A stretch of DNA of 64,000 nt from Capsulimonadales bacterium (GCA_033762295.1 JANRLW010000069.1:32001-96000); one strand, 5' to 3'. Numbered from the stretch's first letter, positions 13,056 to 19,150 are shown. The notes: generated from the letters alone by a model not told the origin. Numbers and translations: made by a program.

Positions 13056-14378
13056 CTAGCCGCCCTTGCCGTCGGTCGACCGGACCGGCGGTTTGCGCCG
13101 CCAGTTCGGGGGGACCGTGCGGCTCGAAAACAGCCCGTTTCGAACTCTTTCGAGGTAGGCTTCCGTCCGTCCCTCGCGGGTCATTCCATCGTAGGAAAAG
13201 AAGTTCAGGCCCCCCGCGCCGAGGTCGCGGCAAACCTGCCCTTTGACGATCGCGGAGGCGGCAGGCATCTGCCACGCGCCGACCCCGGCGATGATCGGTT
13301 TGCCGTAGGAGTTGGCCACGGCATCGCGGATCTGGGAGGCGACCACCGGAGTCGAACGGTTGTACGCCATCGGGCAGGCCGCGTCCAGGAGTCCGTCCCG
13401 GAGCCATTCCCGCCATGCCTGGCCTTTGTCGTGGCTGGCGACCCGGTAGTTCGGGAAGACGGCGGCGGAAATCACCAGATTCGGTTTGAGACGGTGCGCC
13501 TCCTCGGAGATGCCCCGGACGGTTTCGGTCACGGTGCCACGCCGCCATTCGCGCCACTCCGTCGGGAACAGGTAGAAATCGGCCAGACGGTTTTTCGCCC
13601 GTTTTTTCGCCGCGTAGGCGAGGTCATTGTCGGACAGGCGTTCGCTCAAATAGTCCCGAAAAGCCGCCAGCGACGTTTCCGAGAAGGAAAATCGTTCACT
13701 CGGGTAGCGTACGTAATCGAAGTGAAGACCGTCGATATCGTACCGGGAAACCACATCCATAAAGACGTTCCGCAGGTATTCGCGAACCGCCGGAATGGCC
13801 GGGTCCAGGAACGCCCCCTCGGCATCGTTGGTCGGTATCATGGCGATCCGATTCTGGCGGTCGCGGACCAGCCACTCCGGATGGAGGTTGATGACATGCC
13901 GCGACGAATAGGGAAGACGCCGTTGGTGCCATACCAGGAAGGTATTCATCCAGGCATGAACTTCGAGGCCGGCCCGATGCCCTTCCTCAATCGCCACCGC
14001 CAGGGGGTCGAAATCGGCGGGCTGTCGGCTGAGACTCTCGGACCTCGGTTCGAACCGCGACTGATAAAAAGCGTCGCCCCGTCCGCGTACCTGGACGAAG
14101 AGGGTGTTGAACCCGTACTTTTTGGCGAGGGTGACCGCGTTCCGTATTTTCGCGGGAGAGGTGAGGGTATCTCGAACGATCCAGAGCGCGCGGACTTCTC
14201 CGGTTTCGACATCGGTCGCCGTGGGAAGCGGGTCTTCGTTGGGGGCGACGGCAGGCAGGTTTTCGGGGGACGACGGAGATGATGTGGCGGACGGGGGTTG
14301 AGCAACGGCTTCCGGTATCGACGGACCCGCCATCAGCAACAGGGCGAGGACCACGGGAAGGGCCGGCGAATTGGGCAT
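13056..14378 (-). CDS. Secreted glycoside hydrolase-like 10 (GHL10/DUF187) protein
   Basis: Signal peptide; EVRALW, GFNTLFVQVR, GLEVHAWMN, YDIDGLHFDY and PMAY motifs. Confidence 0.85.
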   Translation of the reverse strand: MPNSPALPVVLALLLMAGPSIPEAVAQPPSATSSPSSPENLPAVAPNEDPLPTATDVETGEVRALWIVRDTLTSPAKIRNAVTLAKKYGFNTLFVQVRGRGDAFYQSRFEPRSESLSRQPADFDPLAVAIEEGHRAGLEVHAWMNTFLVWHQRRLPYSSRHVINLHPEWLVRDRQNRIAMIPTNDAEGAFLDPAIPAVREYLRNVFMDVVSRYDIDGLHFDYVRYPSERFSFSETSLAAFRDYLSERLSDNDLAYAAKKRAKNRLADFYLFPTEWREWRRGTVTETVRGISEEAHRLKPNLVISAAVFPNYRVASHDKGQAWREWLRDGLLDAACPMAYNRSTPVVASQIRDAVANSYGKPIIAGVGAWQMPAASAIVKGQVCRDLGAGGLNFFSYDGMTREGRTEAYLERVRNGLFSSRTVPPNWRRKPPVRSTDGKGG

Positions 14379-14526
14379 GACTTCTTCCTCTCGGCGCGTC
14401 GGACCCCCCGGAATTGGCAGAGTGGAACAGGGGCGACGCGCTACAAACGCGATGGTATCCCGCTCCGTCGTTGATGTCAAGAAAAGACGGCAAACCTGCC
14501 AACTGTACCGAAGAGACGATTTGAAG

Positions 14527-14564
14527 TATAATCGGACTGTGGGTTAGCGTTGACATATGTCAAC
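14527..14564 (+). promoter_or_regulatory. -10 box (TATAAT) followed by a perfect 16-bp palindrome GTTGACATATGTCAAC (candidate operator)
   Basis: TATAAT at 14527-14532 and the palindrome at 14549-14564, in the divergent GHL10/kinase intergenic region. Confidence 0.55.
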
Positions 14565-14648
14565 AAATGTCATGGAGCAAGGAACCGTGGGGCGCCGTTT
14601 CATCGGTCGTAACCGTTTCCGACCGGTTCGCTCCCAAAAAGGAACAAC

Positions 14649-16241
14649 ATGCCTTCGGAACCACACCCGAAAAAGAGAACGCCGGCAGCTTACTGGTCTC
14701 CCGCCCGGTCGATCGCGCTCGGGGTCGCCGGTCTCGCGTTGATCAGTGCGGGAATCGTCAGTCTGGTCCAGCGGCGAACCCGTGACAAATATCTGGAGGA
14801 GCAGCAGCGTCGACGCGAACAGGAGGTCATCGCTCTGGTGAACGCGGAACGGTTCCGTCTGGCGTCCGAAGCGGTCAACGGACTGATTTACGACTGGGAC
14901 CCGGAGACCGGCGCGGTGCTGCGGACACGCGGTCTGACCGAACTGCTCGGATATCTGGGCCGGGAGGATCAGGATACGATGGCCTGGTGGCGGGAACAGA
15001 TTCATCCGGAGGATCGGGAGCGTGTGGCCGCCGCGTTCGAAGCGGTCCGGGATCATCATCGTCCCTCGTTTGAGATCGAATACCGCGTTCGCCACAAATC
15101 GGGGCAATATGTCCGCCTTCAGGACCGGGGCGTGATTCTGCGCGATGCCGGCGGAAAAGCCGTCCGCGTCGTCGGTTGCAGTATCGATGTCACCGCCCGG
15201 TATGAAGCCGAAAGGGCGCTTCGCTACAGCGAGGAGCGTCTGCGTCTGGCGGTCACCGGCGCGGACCTCGGCACATGGCACTGGAACCTGCGAACCGATC
15301 GCTTCGAACTGTCGGATCGTTGTCGGCGACACTTTGGCATCGCCCCGGAGGAGGAGGTGGATTCGGAACGGTTCTTTCGCGCCGCTCCCTCCGACGATCG
15401 GGAATGGGTCCGCGCGGCCGCGTTGCTGGCGATCGAGCAGGGGCAGGATTTCGACGTGGAACATCGTGTGGTGCTGCCGGACGGATCGTTTCGGTGGCTG
15501 GCCGTTCGTGGACGCGCCCATGCCGATGAAGCCTCGGTACCGATGAGCATGGAGGGGATCGCTCTGGACGTGACGGAACGCCATCTGGCGCTCTCGGAGA
15601 TCGAAAAGCTCAACGTCCGCCTGCAGCGAGCGATGGCGGAAAGCCACCACCGGATCAAGAACAACCTGCAAACGCTGGCCGCCCTGGCCGAAATGCAATC
15701 GTTCCACCAGGACAATACGGTTCCCCGCGAGGCGTTCGAGCGGCTCTGTCAGCATATCCGGACTCTGGCCTCCCTTCATGACCTGTTGACGCTGGAAATC
15801 CGGGAGTTCCGGGAGGTGGAAACCGTGTCGGTTCGGAATGCGCTGAACCGTCTGACCGATCTGCTCTCGTCCGTGACCGGGAATCGAACCGTGCTCGTCG
15901 ACAGTGAAGAGGCGCGTCTGCCATTGAAACAGGCCGGTTCCTTCTCCCTGCTGGTGAACGAACTGGTTTCCAACGCGGTGAAGCATGGCGCGGGGGATAT
16001 TCGAATTCGTCTTCGAACGACGGCGGATCGGATCAACGGACAGCGTCCGACCGCCCTGCTCGAGGTGACCGATGAAGGGGCGGGTTTCCCCCCCGGTTTC
16101 GACCCGCGAGTGGCGGCGAATACCGGGCTGGAACTGGTGGAGAGTATCGGCTGCTGGGACCTGCAGGGCGCGGTCGCCTACGAAAATGCGCCCGGCGGCG
16201 GCGCGATGGTCCGGGTATCGTTCCCGCTTCAACCGGTCTGA
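14649..16241 (+). CDS. PAS-PAS sensor histidine kinase, HisKA_2 type (EutW/PdtaS-like kinase core)
   Basis: One TM, two PAS/PAC domains (IHPEDRERV, EYRVRHKSG, EHRVVLPDGSFRW), H-box SHHRIKNNLQ, N-box NELVSNAVKHG, DEGAGF and GLELV. Confidence 0.92.
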   Translation: MPSEPHPKKRTPAAYWSPARSIALGVAGLALISAGIVSLVQRRTRDKYLEEQQRRREQEVIALVNAERFRLASEAVNGLIYDWDPETGAVLRTRGLTELLGYLGREDQDTMAWWREQIHPEDRERVAAAFEAVRDHHRPSFEIEYRVRHKSGQYVRLQDRGVILRDAGGKAVRVVGCSIDVTARYEAERALRYSEERLRLAVTGADLGTWHWNLRTDRFELSDRCRRHFGIAPEEEVDSERFFRAAPSDDREWVRAAALLAIEQGQDFDVEHRVVLPDGSFRWLAVRGRAHADEASVPMSMEGIALDVTERHLALSEIEKLNVRLQRAMAESHHRIKNNLQTLAALAEMQSFHQDNTVPREAFERLCQHIRTLASLHDLLTLEIREFREVETVSVRNALNRLTDLLSSVTGNRTVLVDSEEARLPLKQAGSFSLLVNELVSNAVKHGAGDIRIRLRTTADRINGQRPTALLEVTDEGAGFPPGFDPRVAANTGLELVESIGCWDLQGAVAYENAPGGGAMVRVSFPLQPV

Positions 16242-16250
16242 GGCGGTCCG

Positions 16251-16294
16251 AAACGAGAAGGGGCATCCTCCGGTGAGGATACCCCTTCTCGTTT
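16251..16294. terminator. Probable bidirectional intrinsic terminator between the convergent kinase and sigma genes
   Basis: AAACGAGAAGGGGCATCCTC-cggt-GAGGATACCCCTTCTCGTTT, a 20-bp inverted repeat with one mismatch. Confidence 0.8.
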
Positions 16295-16333
16295 GTGTGT
16301 TTCTTTCTCTTTTCGCGTTGCCGGATCGCGTCG

Positions 16334-17002
16334 TCAGGCGACAAACGCCGTGCGATGCGCCTGAAGTTTCCGCAGAAGCGCCTGGCGGGCGCGGTTCAGC
16401 CGGGACTTGACCGTCCCGATCGGCACCTGTGTCATCTCCGAAATCTCCTCGTAGCTGCGCTCTTCCAGATAGAACTGGGAGAGAATTTCCGCATGCAGCC
16501 CCGGCAGTTTGGCCAGCGCTCTATGCAGGATGTCGCGCTGTTCCTGCTCACCGACCAGGGTCAGCGGCGATTTTTCCTTGCTGTCGATAAACGGCAGGGA
16601 GGAGGCGTCCGTGTTTTCGGTCAGCGCCTCGAGGGATACGGCCGGGCACTTTTTCGCGCTTCGGCACATATCGTAAAACGTATTCACCACGATCCGGTTC
16701 ACCCAGGCGGGAAGGGTCACTGCCGACTTGCACTTGTTGATGTTCTGGCACACGCGAAGGATCGCGGCGGCGGCCACATCACTGGCATCGTCGTAGTTCC
16801 CGGCCAACCGGTACGCCAGGGCGTAGATCGGTCGCTTGAACCGGGCGATCAGCGCGTCCATTGCGCCTTTGTCGCCCTTCTGGCACCAGGCAACGATCTC
16901 GGCGTCGCTCATACGCTCGTAGGAGCGGAATCGCGGGCGTGCCGAATCGCCATTCATGGAGGTCGTATTCTGTCCGATATTCGAGGTGGTCAGCGTTTGC
17001 AT
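16334..17002 (-). CDS. ECF (group 4) RNA polymerase sigma factor
   Basis: Region 2 (IYALAYRLAGNYDDASDV...AWVNRIVVN) and region 4 (SYEEISEMTQVPIGTVKSRLNRAR); AAGGA upstream of the ATG. Confidence 0.92.
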   Translation of the reverse strand: MQTLTTSNIGQNTTSMNGDSARPRFRSYERMSDAEIVAWCQKGDKGAMDALIARFKRPIYALAYRLAGNYDDASDVAAAAILRVCQNINKCKSAVTLPAWVNRIVVNTFYDMCRSAKKCPAVSLEALTENTDASSLPFIDSKEKSPLTLVGEQEQRDILHRALAKLPGLHAEILSQFYLEERSYEEISEMTQVPIGTVKSRLNRARQALLRKLQAHRTAFVA

Positions 17003-17218
17003 CGTCTTTATCCTTCTAAAGGGAGGATTCCGCCGAACGGTCCCTTCGGATGCCCATTAATCGGCATTCCGTGGACACTGCGGAAAAAGGAGTCAGACTA
17101 CCTGGCCTGAAAGGGATTGCATGACGGACAGGGCCATACAAATCGAGCGGTCTCCGGTCGCCGTCCCCGGCTATTCCGGGAAACCATATATGTAATCCGC
17201 TACGGTAGCGCCGCAGCC

Positions 17219-17280
17219 AAAAACAAAAAACGCCTGAACTGCAACGAAAGGGGCAACGAGCCCCAATTGCAACTCAGACG
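17219..17280 (-). terminator. Intrinsic terminator (attenuator) inside the ECF sigma 5' leader
   Basis: Minus-strand RNA CGUCUGAGUUGCAA...UUGCAGUUCAGGCG (14 bp including 3 G-U pairs, plus an inner GGGGC/GCCCC stem) followed by UUUUUUGUUUUU. Confidence 0.8.
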
Positions 17281-17324
17281 ATCCTGGCCTGATGTACTCT
17301 GTCGGACGATCCTGGCCCGACAGA
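17274..17324 (-). promoter_or_regulatory. Dual-hairpin RNA element (candidate ANTAR-type antiterminator target)
   Basis: UCUGUCGGGC-CAGGAUC-GUCCGACAGA, 5-nt linker, UCAGGC-CAGGAUC-GUCUGA. The 3' arm of the second hairpin is also the start of the terminator's 5' arm. Confidence 0.7.
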
Positions 17325-17372
17325 AGATATGTAGTTTTCAAAGATGCGGCGCGTTGAGCGTGCTGTTATAAG

Positions 17373-17399
17373 TGACGTGACCCGCGAAAGTTTTGTTCC
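17373..17399 (-). promoter_or_regulatory. Candidate ECF-type promoter GGAAC-N17-CGTCA
   Basis: Reverse complement of gttcc (17395-17399) and tgacg (17373-17377), directly upstream of the leader hairpins. Confidence 0.55.
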
Positions 17400-17622
17400 C
17401 GAAAGAGATCGACATTTTTCGTGTTCTTGTGAAATGAATCCATCCGTGTCAGTCGGCCCCGGGCGGGACACCCTGCCCGAGGCCATTGGGTGCGTACGGT
17501 CGGCGAGGACGGTGATTGCCCCGCATAAAAGGTCGTTGCCTTCCCGCATCGGGTTCCGTCCTCCGACGTCCGGGCGCAAGTTCCCTTCCGGAACCCCGGG
17601 TATTCGTTCGGGTCGATGGAAC

Positions 17623-17631
17623 TGGTATACT
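17623..17631 (+). promoter_or_regulatory. Extended -10 (TGGTATACT) for the ANTAR regulator
   Basis: TGn-TATACT about 40 nt upstream of ATG 17673. Confidence 0.5.
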
Positions 17632-17672
17632 AATGATCATTCGAAAATCGAAACGATGTGCAAGAGGGATGT

Positions 17673-18266
17673 ATGAGTGAAACGACTCCCCGTCTCAAGG
17701 CGTTGATCTGCGAGGATGAAGGCATGACCGTCATTCTGTTGCAGCGCGCTTTGCAGGCTGCCGGTTATGAAGTCGTGGGAAAAGCCGTGGAGGGCGCACA
17801 GGCGGTGGAACTGGCACGCTCGACGCAACCCGATTTCATTCTGATGGATATCAATATGCCGGGGATGAACGGGATCGAATCCACGCGGTTGATTACCGCC
17901 GAACGATCCGTTCCGATTATCATGCTTACGGCCTATAGCGAGGATAAGCGGGTGGATGAGGCGATCGACGCCGGCGCTTGCGCTTACCTGGTAAAGCCGA
18001 TCACCAGTACCCAGTTGATTCCGTCCTTACGTACGGCTCTTGCCCGTTTCGAGGCGCTGAACGATATCCGTAAGGAAAATCAGGATTTAAAGGACCAACT
18101 GGAGACGCGAAAACTCGTCGAACGCGCCAAAGGCATCCTGCAGCAGCGGACCGGCCTGACGGAGGCGGACGCTTTCAAGCGGATTCAAAAGGTCAGCCGG
18201 GACAAATGCCAACCGATGCGCCAGACCGCCCACGAGATTATTGAAGCGGATTCGTTGTTTTCCTAG
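17673..18266 (+). CDS. REC-ANTAR response regulator (PdtaR/EutV/AmiR-NasT-like)
   Basis: REC domain (CEDE, ILMDINMPGMNG, MLTAY, YLVKP), coiled coil, then ANTAR (LETRKLVERAKGILQQRTGLTEADAFKRIQKVSRD). Confidence 0.93.
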   Translation: MSETTPRLKALICEDEGMTVILLQRALQAAGYEVVGKAVEGAQAVELARSTQPDFILMDINMPGMNGIESTRLITAERSVPIIMLTAYSEDKRVDEAIDAGACAYLVKPITSTQLIPSLRTALARFEALNDIRKENQDLKDQLETRKLVERAKGILQQRTGLTEADAFKRIQKVSRDKCQPMRQTAHEIIEADSLFS

Positions 18267-18297
18267 GTCGCTCCGGCTATCCTCGGGGTTTTGGCTG

Positions 18298-18306
18298 TGC
18301 TATAAT
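18298..18306 (+). promoter_or_regulatory. Extended -10 (TGCTATAAT) for ferredoxin
   Basis: Perfect TGn-TATAAT about 70 nt upstream of the ATG. Confidence 0.6.
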
Positions 18307-18374
18307 CACGACAGTCCGCCCGCCGACGGAGTCAAGATGCCTGGCGAGAAGCGGACATCATCCCGGAGGAAACG

Positions 18375-18617
18375 ATGCCCTACATCATTACCGAGCCGTG
18401 CATCGGTGTCAAAGACAAGAGCTGTGTCGCTGTCTGCCCCGTTGACTGCATCCACGGCGGCGACGACGATAACCAGCTGTTCATTGATCCCAGCGAATGC
18501 ATCGACTGCGGTCTCTGTGAGCCGGAATGCCCGGTGGATGCCATCTTCATGGAAGATGAAGTCCCGGACAAGTGGAAAACCTATATCCAGCTCAACGCCG
18601 ATTACTACAAAAAGTAA
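18375..18617 (+). CDS. fdxA: Dicluster (7Fe-type) ferredoxin
   Basis: CIGVKDKSCVAVCPVDC and CIDCGLCEPECP motifs; GGAGG RBS. Confidence 0.92.
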   Translation: MPYIITEPCIGVKDKSCVAVCPVDCIHGGDDDNQLFIDPSECIDCGLCEPECPVDAIFMEDEVPDKWKTYIQLNADYYKK

Positions 18618-18679
18618 AGGGTTCAGGGGCGGCCGGAACGTTCCGACGAACGCCGCCGCCCTTATTTACGGTTGCCGTC

Positions 18680-19150
18680 ATGTCTTCCCGTGAACGGACA
18701 TCCTCCTTGCCGGAGTTCCCCCTGGTGGCCCGCGTTCGAGTCCGCACATATGAACTCGATTCCTTCGGGCATGTGAATAATGCCGTTTATCTCCAGTATC
18801 TGGAGGAGGCGCGTTCGGAATACCTTCGACAGATGGGGCTTTCCTTCCGGGATTTTTCCGTTCATGGTGTGCAGATCGTCATCGCGGAGGCGACAATCCG
18901 CTATCTGTCCCCGTTGCGTTACGGAGATTCGGCCCGGATCGAAGGACGGATAACGGCGTTGCGCCCGGTCTCGGCCAATTTTGAGTATCGCCTGATCCGC
19001 GAGGACGGAGAGGAGCGGATCGCCGAGGCGAGCACGCGCGGCGTATTCGTTCGTGCCGAATCCGGACGCCCGACCCGTGCGCCGCAGCCGTTTCGCGAGG
19101 CGTTTGCCCGGTTTACCGGCGAAAGGAGCCTGACCCTCGATGCTGAATAG
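18680..19150 (+). CDS. Acyl-CoA thioesterase (4HBT/YbgC hotdog family)
   Basis: ELDSFGHVNNAVYLQYLEEAR motif. Confidence 0.9.
   Translation: MSSRERTSSLPEFPLVARVRVRTYELDSFGHVNNAVYLQYLEEARSEYLRQMGLSFRDFSVHGVQIVIAEATIRYLSPLRYGDSARIEGRITALRPVSANFEYRLIREDGEERIAEASTRGVFVRAESGRPTRAPQPFREAFARFTGERSLTLDAE

Follow-up and report, generated by a model that had tools for sequence, protein, structure and literature searches.

A candidate ANTAR-responsive RNA switch in the leader of an ECF sigma factor gene, linked to a HisKA_2 kinase and a REC-ANTAR regulator

Extracytoplasmic function (ECF) sigma factors form the third large class of bacterial signal transducers, and the DNA considered here, a stretch of 64,000 nucleotides from a Capsulimonadales bacterium (GCA_033762295.1, JANRLW010000069.1:32001-96000; hereafter the window, with positions counted from its first letter), carries one of them next to a sensor kinase of the HisKA_2 type, to which PdtaS of Mycobacterium tuberculosis also belongs, and a response regulator combining a receiver (REC) with an ANTAR domain. 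According to the ECF re-classification (PMC7826278; consulted in part, as were PMC3369931, PMC8934654, PMC8164766 and PMC12591593), the controls known to act on such sigma factors are anti-sigma factors, fused extensions, Ser/Thr phosphorylation, partner switching and DNA-binding two-component regulators, and the groups linked to two-component systems are ECF15, ECF246, ECF32, ECF39 and ECF234. The canonical target of ANTAR proteins, in turn, consists of hexanucleotide loops with A1 and G4 (PMC3369931), and in the crystal structure of EutV with its RNA a flipped-out G4 makes the sole base-specific contact (PMC8934654). Among actinobacterial ANTAR RNAs, some are predicted before genes for the transcription factors LacI, TetR and SufR (PMC8164766).

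Three genes make up the locus in the window. A sensor histidine kinase of 530 aa (14649-16241, plus strand), in which Pfam recognises two stretches of PAS_3, a PAS domain, HisKA_2 and HATPase_c, converges on an ECF-type sigma factor of 222 aa (16334-17002, minus strand; Pfam Sigma70_r2 and Sigma70_r4_2, NCBIfam TIGR02937), which is separated by a divergent spacer of 655 bp, with a G+C content of 0.54 versus about 0.62, from a REC-ANTAR response regulator of 202 aa (17658-18266, plus strand; Pfam Response_reg and ANTAR). This contiguity had been described in an earlier note on the same DNA, and the ORF listing and Pfam assignments agree with it. We favour, with a probability of roughly 70%, a three-tier module in which the kinase acts on the REC-ANTAR regulator, the regulator on an RNA switch, and the switch on the sigma factor. 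The adjacent HisKA_2 kinase with its PAS domains, possibly together with paralogs, would phosphorylate the regulator. The sigma gene would have an ECF-type promoter, GGAAC-N17-CGTC, and its transcript would begin with a leader of about 365 nt bearing two hairpins, P1 and P2; by default, the predicted fold has a long helix capture the 3' arm of P2, after which a U-tract would stop transcription near 17225. Following the mechanism of EutV, and in keeping with the comparative data, an activated ANTAR dimer would bind the P1 and P2 loops on the nascent RNA, keep P2 closed and block the terminator, allowing read-through. Newly made sigma factor would then fire its own promoter, as the conservation of the promoter motif suggests, in a positive feedback that stays gated by RNA, and would probably drive genes of general-stress type, the weakest step of the scheme. 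The same course of events (kinase, read-through by the ANTAR protein, amplification by the sigma factor) had been put forward in the earlier note, and comparison of genomes supports it at the level of sequence.

The leader itself (17003-17367, minus strand, its 5' end placed from the promoter-like site) contains direct 19-nt repeats at 17274-17292 and 17302-17320 that are 89% alike, each of which folds on the minus strand as a hairpin with the 7-nt loop CAGGAUC. Hairpin P1 (17297-17325, minus strand, 11 bp) is indicated by the repeats, by folding and by a covariance model, and P2 (17274-17292, minus strand, 6 bp) by the repeats and by folding. The 3' arm of P2 is common with a predicted intrinsic terminator (17219-17280, minus strand), composed of a helix of -28.1 kcal/mol (17280-17231) and a U-tract (17230-17219), and seven of the nine bases in the loop and 3' arm of P2 pair downstream in it. 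Folding of the window sequence makes the two structures mutually exclusive: the minimum-energy fold keeps P1 and swaps P2 for the long helix (CGUCUGA...UUCAGGCG) followed by UUUUUUGUUUUU, and this terminator conformer reaches -51.9 kcal/mol, versus -39.5 with both hairpins forced, a gap of 12 kcal/mol. A core of 146 nt folds with a z-score of -4.4, and none of 200 shuffles folded as well. By analogy, this layout is that of EutV-type antiterminators, where P2 likewise has its 3' arm in common with the terminator. The leader of about 370 nt with twin hairpins and an overlapping terminator that had been proposed beforehand is therefore recovered by these analyses, the interval between the promoter-like site (17399-17374) and the ATG at 17002 fitting that length, and the 3' end expected near 17225 falls in the position of the predicted U-tract.

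Conservation of this element was followed with two covariance models, R1, made from an alignment of ten leaders (A1), and R2, built from 24 R1 matches (alignment A3); their E-values, from a shortened calibration, are rough. Within the 5.16-Mb genome that carries the window (G000), the sigma leader is the best R1 match (55 bits, E 8e-11) and only one further match falls below E 0.01, a second module of that leader, which leaves the sigma leader, by model score, as the only convincing target in its own genome. Eight strong R1 matches (55-70 bits) were found in 7 of 32 genomes of family f1, and 13 in 8 of 24 genomes of f27, 11 of the latter, in six genomes, looking real on inspection; f8 gave few R1 matches, with R2 matches in 9 of its 41 genomes at E up to 0.001 (leaders inspected in G416, G340, G320 and G074), and a match was found in f9 (G047). 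Of the 25 real-looking leaders, 20 lie immediately before an ECF sigma ORF, in 16 genomes of four families, which are probably Verrucomicrobiota. A hairpin and U-tract overlap the 3' arm of P2 in 22 of 26 matches and in 19 of the 20 sigma leaders. Of the stem cells, 92.7% pair in A1, where 9 of 15 pairs have changed on both sides, giving a covariation score reached by none of 500 shuffles (slid controls pair at 30-53%), and 92.7% pair in the 24 sequences of A3, an alignment fitted to its model, where 58 cells have changed on both sides.

The other five real-looking leaders comprise two before a YmgE/GlsB-type (Transgly_assoc) gene (G367, G340), one before an unknown gene (G086) and two before the ANTAR gene region in genus g177 (G340 L273 2648-2697; G416 L328 1501-1554), an arrangement that may represent autoregulation of the regulator. 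A plain twin-loop pattern, applied to 401 genomes of the phylum, returned mostly noise from coding sequences, with G000 and G017 alone real, and among metagenome contigs (80 loci from 120 stretches) none of its matches had two proper hairpins adjoining a sigma gene. A loop-like pattern is also abundant in G340 (loci L042, L055-L062), where 73 matches (40 forward, 33 reverse) are interspersed repeats of GCCAGGGTCG units, unrelated to the sigma leader.

Outside its own genome, the ANTAR protein marks a distinct ortholog group present in about 29 of the 401 phylum genomes at 59-69% identity (some at 51-54%), set apart from generic ANTAR protein at 40-50%; a search of wider genome contigs turned up no orthologs, only receiver domains of a generic kind in many phyla. 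An ECF sigma gene lies within 1.5 kb of the ortholog at 10 of 29 non-self loci, and similarity to the HisKA_2 kinase at 11 of 29. Arrangements vary among the relatives (ANTAR then sigma, sigma then ANTAR, or divergent), and the spacers upstream of the ANTAR-linked sigma genes bear the same twin-hairpin element. Kinase, sigma and ANTAR genes occur together in G017, where the ANTAR and sigma genes share a strand, the ANTAR gene being upstream and a related twin hairpin separating the two. Conserved synteny and a conserved leader had both been named in the earlier note as checks on its proposal, and both are borne out, the former by these loci and the latter by the twin hairpins, terminators and covariation described above.

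The distribution of the leader also follows that of the ANTAR gene. In the window's own family the strong leader is confined to genomes with the orthologous gene; among 24 f1 genomes searched for both, six have ortholog and strong leader, none the leader alone and 17 neither, and one (G010) has the ortholog with a weak leader variant only (18.7 bits). Leaders are present in all five ortholog-bearing genomes of f27, and the six convincing R2 matches in a sample of 151 phylum genomes all fall in ortholog-bearing genomes, with no matches in the 7 f2, 12 f11, 13 f15 and 13 f5 genomes of that sample. It could nonetheless be argued that the leader acts as an attenuator independently of any protein, or is targeted by a different factor, and that the ANTAR gene is merely a co-regulated neighbour. 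Rfam has no match at E up to 10 within 14000-19000, the loops depart from the canonical ANTAR hexaloop, and many f8 genomes possess the ortholog and lack the leader. Against this account stand the strict co-occurrence of leader and ortholog in f1 and f27, the adjacency of sigma and ANTAR genes in several different arrangements, and an architecture of EutV-target type (two hairpins, a linker of 5-7 nt, an invariant G4, and a P2 common with the terminator); we accord it little probability.

A second account accepts the ANTAR protein as the ligand and holds that it acts on the leader mainly through translation or RNA stability, not termination. Actinobacterial ANTAR targets overlap the ribosome-binding site (RBS) or start codon (PMC8164766), and the window leader contains, at 17090-17144 on the minus strand, a second, degenerate dual hairpin with loops CCUGUCC and CAGGUA, detected by the covariance models (27.2 bits with R1, 38.4 bits with R2), after which a CUCCUU (17082-17092, CUCCUUUUU) can pair with the Shine-Dalgarno sequence AGAAGGA (17017-17011) in the minimum-energy fold. 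The terminator rule finds no terminator overlapping this module, which may be a relic or a translational checkpoint. The strong module, on the other hand, lies some 270 nt from the start codon and is overlapped by a helix and U-tract in all sigma leaders except one, whereas the second module is specific to the window's genome; control chiefly at the level of translation or stability is an improbable reading. The P1 hairpin of the second module resembles the f1-type consensus.

The promoter-like site GGAAC-N17-CGTC (17374-17399, minus strand) has the usual shape of ECF promoters, and the promoter consensus of EcfG is likewise of the GGAAC ... CGT type. With a spacer of always 17 nt, it precedes 10 of the 21 leaders listed, the window's included, and two more are off by one base in the second element; a scan for sigma-70 promoters found no site in 16200-18400. 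The motif occurs 186 times in the genome and twice in the window, versus 1.95 expected, that is, at chance, so that the weight of this site rests on its position and conservation. Its conservation before the leaders suggests positive autoregulation gated by the switch, and to that extent the self-amplification of the sigma factor envisaged in the earlier note is supported. It does not hold throughout, since the leader of six f1 relatives is preceded by a TTGACA-N17-GATAAT-like site instead, and autoregulation is thus not universal.

Within the sigma factor, Sigma70_r2 covers residues 51-118 and Sigma70_r4_2 residues 157-209, with a short linker and no Pfam match to region 3, the composition of an ECF (group 4) protein. 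The superfamily model TIGR02937 (sigma70-ECF) was the only NCBIfam model passed (81 bits, cut-off 42.9); no equivalog fits, all being far under their cut-offs (the best, SigW, at 110 bits versus 209). The sigma stop codon is 92 nt from that of the convergent kinase gene, a configuration that makes co-transcription of an anti-sigma gene impossible, and the neighbouring proteins in the window, inspected with Pfam, belong to no anti-sigma family, which agrees with the reported absence of an anti-sigma gene nearby. They include a ferredoxin, a thioesterase, a 220-aa ORF without a family, a TOBE protein, a GHL10 hydrolase and a beta-lactamase-like protein. With no co-transcribed anti-sigma factor, sigma abundance would be the controlled variable.

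It may be objected that the RNA switch is one layer only, and that sigma activity is set mainly after translation, by a distant anti-sigma factor or by the N-terminal stretch of the sigma factor itself. The inspection for anti-sigma families covered the neighbourhood alone, soluble anti-sigma factors are hard to recognise (PMC7826278), and about 50 residues precede sigma region 2; furthermore, in G189 (L297 4649-4921) a 91-aa ORF without a Pfam family lies between the leader-linked sigma and ANTAR genes. This ORF is, however, not conserved, the sigma gene directly abutting the ANTAR gene in G385, and a convergent kinase follows the sigma gene also in the f1 relatives. Nor does the genome contain a PhyR-type partner at the cut-off: none of the matches to model NF006623 reaches it and all cover the receiver part only, which sets the locus apart from the PhyR-NepR-EcfG (ECF15) type. 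Predominantly post-translational control appears unlikely to us, though it retains some weight.

A maximum-likelihood tree of 51 sigma domains, for which the non-leader sigmas had been picked as best matches to the query and are not an unbiased sample, brings together 17 of the 21 leader-linked sigmas (support 85/98). The window sigma, on a long branch, falls in a clade of 12 rows (99/94) that also takes in the sigmas of G320, G074 and G086 and of the f1 relatives; a second leader-linked clade consists of three f27 paralogs, and 28 non-leader ECFs of the relatives lie elsewhere. In 40 relatives, even the best homologs of the sigma factor reach only about 40% identity, and the protein-atlas clusters nearest to the window sigma are mostly from Verrucomicrobiota, which made this the probable phylum in the present analysis. 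Four genomes (G320, G074, G305 and G412) have a further sigma-like ORF, of smaller size, behind the leader-linked sigma gene (L330 1514-2107, L337 2286-2915, L321 2688-3053, L326 2706-3053), and these ORFs form a long-branched clade of their own with the G385a sigma.

The kinase and regulator have the domains expected of a HisKA_2/ANTAR pair: HisKA_2 (residues 331-408) and an ATPase domain in the kinase, receiver and ANTAR domains in the regulator (Pfam). An N-terminal hydrophobic segment precedes the PAS domains of the kinase, HHRIKNNL is present in its translation, and the HisKA_2 kinases found convergent to the sigma gene in relatives share 47-51% identity with its C-terminal half. How exclusively this kinase serves the regulator is a separate matter. 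Several HisKA_2 kinases may converge on the ANTAR protein, with the adjacent PAS kinase not its sole or main phosphodonor, a possibility that we take seriously while thinking it somewhat less probable than not. Ten HisKA_2 kinases are encoded in the genome, and in comparisons with the relatives' kinases the scores of paralogs on C85, C118 and C67 come close to that of the adjacent kinase (189 versus 181 bits for the adjacent kinase and paralog, 151 versus 144, 166 versus 165, and a tie at 157). The linked kinase of the relatives, moreover, is a REC-HisKA_2 hybrid with a CHASE3 kinase feeding it, an arrangement that amounts to a relay, and the receiver of the ANTAR protein has 64% identity with a REC protein on C85. 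In favour of the adjacent kinase, it is nevertheless the top match for three of four relatives' kinases, and a HisKA_2 kinase adjoins the ANTAR or sigma gene at 11 of the 29 non-self loci. The C85 receiver protein (G000 C85:60428-60802, minus strand), whose similarity spans residues 12-136 and which has no ANTAR match, sits between two HisKA_2 kinases (C85:53056-53280 and C85:69714-69941) and may provide the network with a competing or branching phospho-acceptor.

For the regulator gene, the true start is probably the ATG at 17673 rather than the GTG at 17658, judging from the proteins of relatives, which align from residue 6 on, and from AAGAGGGA, which stands before that ATG. An extended -10-like site, TGGTATACT, is found about 40 nt upstream of the ANTAR gene start (region 17621-17675, plus strand).

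The hairpin loops are the part of the leader on which recognition by the ANTAR protein would depend. C1, G4 (in both loops) and the closing C-G pair do not vary among the 24 sequences, and position 2 is A in 16 of 24 cases in loop 1 and in 21 of 24 in loop 2. The consensus, C-[A/C]-N-G-N-N-Y for loop 1 and C-A-R-G-A-K-Y for loop 2, may be summarised as C-A-N-G-N-N-Y. The two stems are arranged in tandem (P1 9-11 bp, P2 6 bp, linker 5-7 nt) as in ANTAR targets. In sequence terms the element keeps the key determinant, G4, and is a loop-length variant, which on this point falls outside strict membership of the family.

This departure is the first of several considerations that weigh against the three-tier module. 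The loops have 7 nt and retain, of the A1 and G4 features of the canonical hexaloop, G4 alone; with C1-A2-N-G4 loops in place of hexaloops, binding by the ANTAR protein is an extrapolation. Nineteen ANTAR-ortholog loci have no sigma gene within 1.5 kb. Most f8 genomes with the ortholog (59-65% identity) have no detectable leader (genera g80 and g150, together with G173, G344 and G389); among 13 ortholog-bearing f8 genomes, inspected leaders are those of G340, G320 and G074, and G397 has a candidate match of 31.6 bits. The genomes compared are related and their leader counts are not independent, and to this may be added the selective sampling of the sigma tree, the sigma-70-like promoters of the f1 leaders, and the adjacent kinase, which by similarity score is the best counterpart of the relatives' kinases only marginally.

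As to function, the neighbourhoods of the relatives contain CsbD-like, BON-domain, Transgly_assoc and BrkB genes and a relay of CHASE3 kinase, REC protein and REC-HisKA_2 kinase. In the window's genome, two intergenic GGAAC-N17-CGTC sites precede a cluster of genes for a DUF3187 protein, a membrane protein, and YtxH-like and KGG-repeat proteins (C33:5679-8830; L332 1180-4327). YtxH, KGG-repeat and similar genes are classical general-stress types, and the sites make this cluster a suggestive candidate for membership of the sigma regulon; with the genome-wide count of the motif at chance, the link to stress genes is a lead only. Taken together, the neighbouring and motif-linked genes (CsbD, YtxH, KGG, BON, YmgE) hint at a role in general stress. 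A bolder and decidedly tentative view, to which we would give less than even odds, is that the module forms the core of a general stress response in Verrucomicrobiota. Several HisKA_2 kinases would feed one REC-ANTAR protein, whose sole RNA targets would be leaders belonging to between one and three autoregulated ECF sigma genes, and a few stress genes; an AND gate on the nascent RNA would combine sigma-dependent initiation with ANTAR-dependent read-through, and the heptaloop C-A-N-G-N-N-Y would be a new variant of ANTAR recognition. Such a core, if real, would be built unlike any of the three known solutions, sigma-B partner switching, RpoS and PhyR-NepR-EcfG, and it offers a lead to the wiring of stress responses in this phylum.

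No paper connecting ANTAR with a sigma-factor gene, whether ECF or not, came up in full-text literature searches. The consulted part of an ANTAR review (PMC12591593) lists no sigma-gene target, the word ANTAR is absent from the consulted text and one supplement of the ECF re-classification (PMC7826278), and 'sigma' does not occur in the supplements of PMC3369931. The main text and searched supplements of PMC8164766 contain no sigma-factor target and one weak match to an 'anti-sigma factor antagonist'; a literature search that combined the general stress response with Verrucomicrobia and ECF gave nothing on the subject by title or abstract. From the sequences compared, the ANTAR-gated sigma leader looks like a previously undescribed control of ECF sigma factors, in which two known mechanisms are combined in a new way with a variant RNA motif. 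If this is true, an RNA-binding antiterminator is to be added to the mechanisms that control ECF sigma factors, and ANTAR proteins gain a role in regulatory cascades, beyond catabolic and nitrogen operons, as well as a variant recognition motif. With a single kinase, regulator, leader and sigma factor the system is compact; it is testable in vitro and could serve as an orthogonal, RNA-gated sigma switch.

Among the systems described so far, EutW/EutV and the eut leaders of Enterococcus faecalis (PMC3369931, PMC8934654) resemble the locus in the two-component pairing of a kinase with a REC-ANTAR protein, the tandem hairpins with a short linker, the overlap of P2 with the terminator, and G4. They differ in that the target here is a sigma gene and not a catabolic operon, the loops are 7-nt C-A-N-G-N-N-Y instead of the hexaloop A-N-N-G-N-N, a genome carries a single target (or, in some members of f27, two or three), and the leader lies behind an ECF-type, probably autoregulated promoter. 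PdtaS/PdtaR and the actinobacterial ANTAR RNAs (PMC8164766) share the combination of a cytoplasmic-sensing kinase and a REC-ANTAR regulator, yet those RNAs, as described there, mostly overlap the RBS and act on translation, unlike the terminator switch proposed for the window. From the side of the sigma factors, the parts consulted of PMC7826278 offer parallels in SigE-CseBC (ECF39), HrpL (ECF32) and ECF234, likewise ECFs without a linked anti-sigma factor whose amount is set by a two-component system; there a DNA-binding response regulator acts at the promoter, whereas here an RNA-binding regulator would act at a terminator, after initiation. The general stress response of alphaproteobacteria (HWE/HisKA_2 kinases, PhyR, NepR and EcfG; ECF15) is similar in that kinases of HisKA_2 type feed a receiver protein that releases an ECF sigma factor, in its promoter of the GGAAC ... 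CGT type, and in the CsbD-type and other stress genes nearby. It is dissimilar in that the present genome has no PhyR at the cut-off and no partner switch, the output being, in the arrangement proposed here, a switch in RNA.

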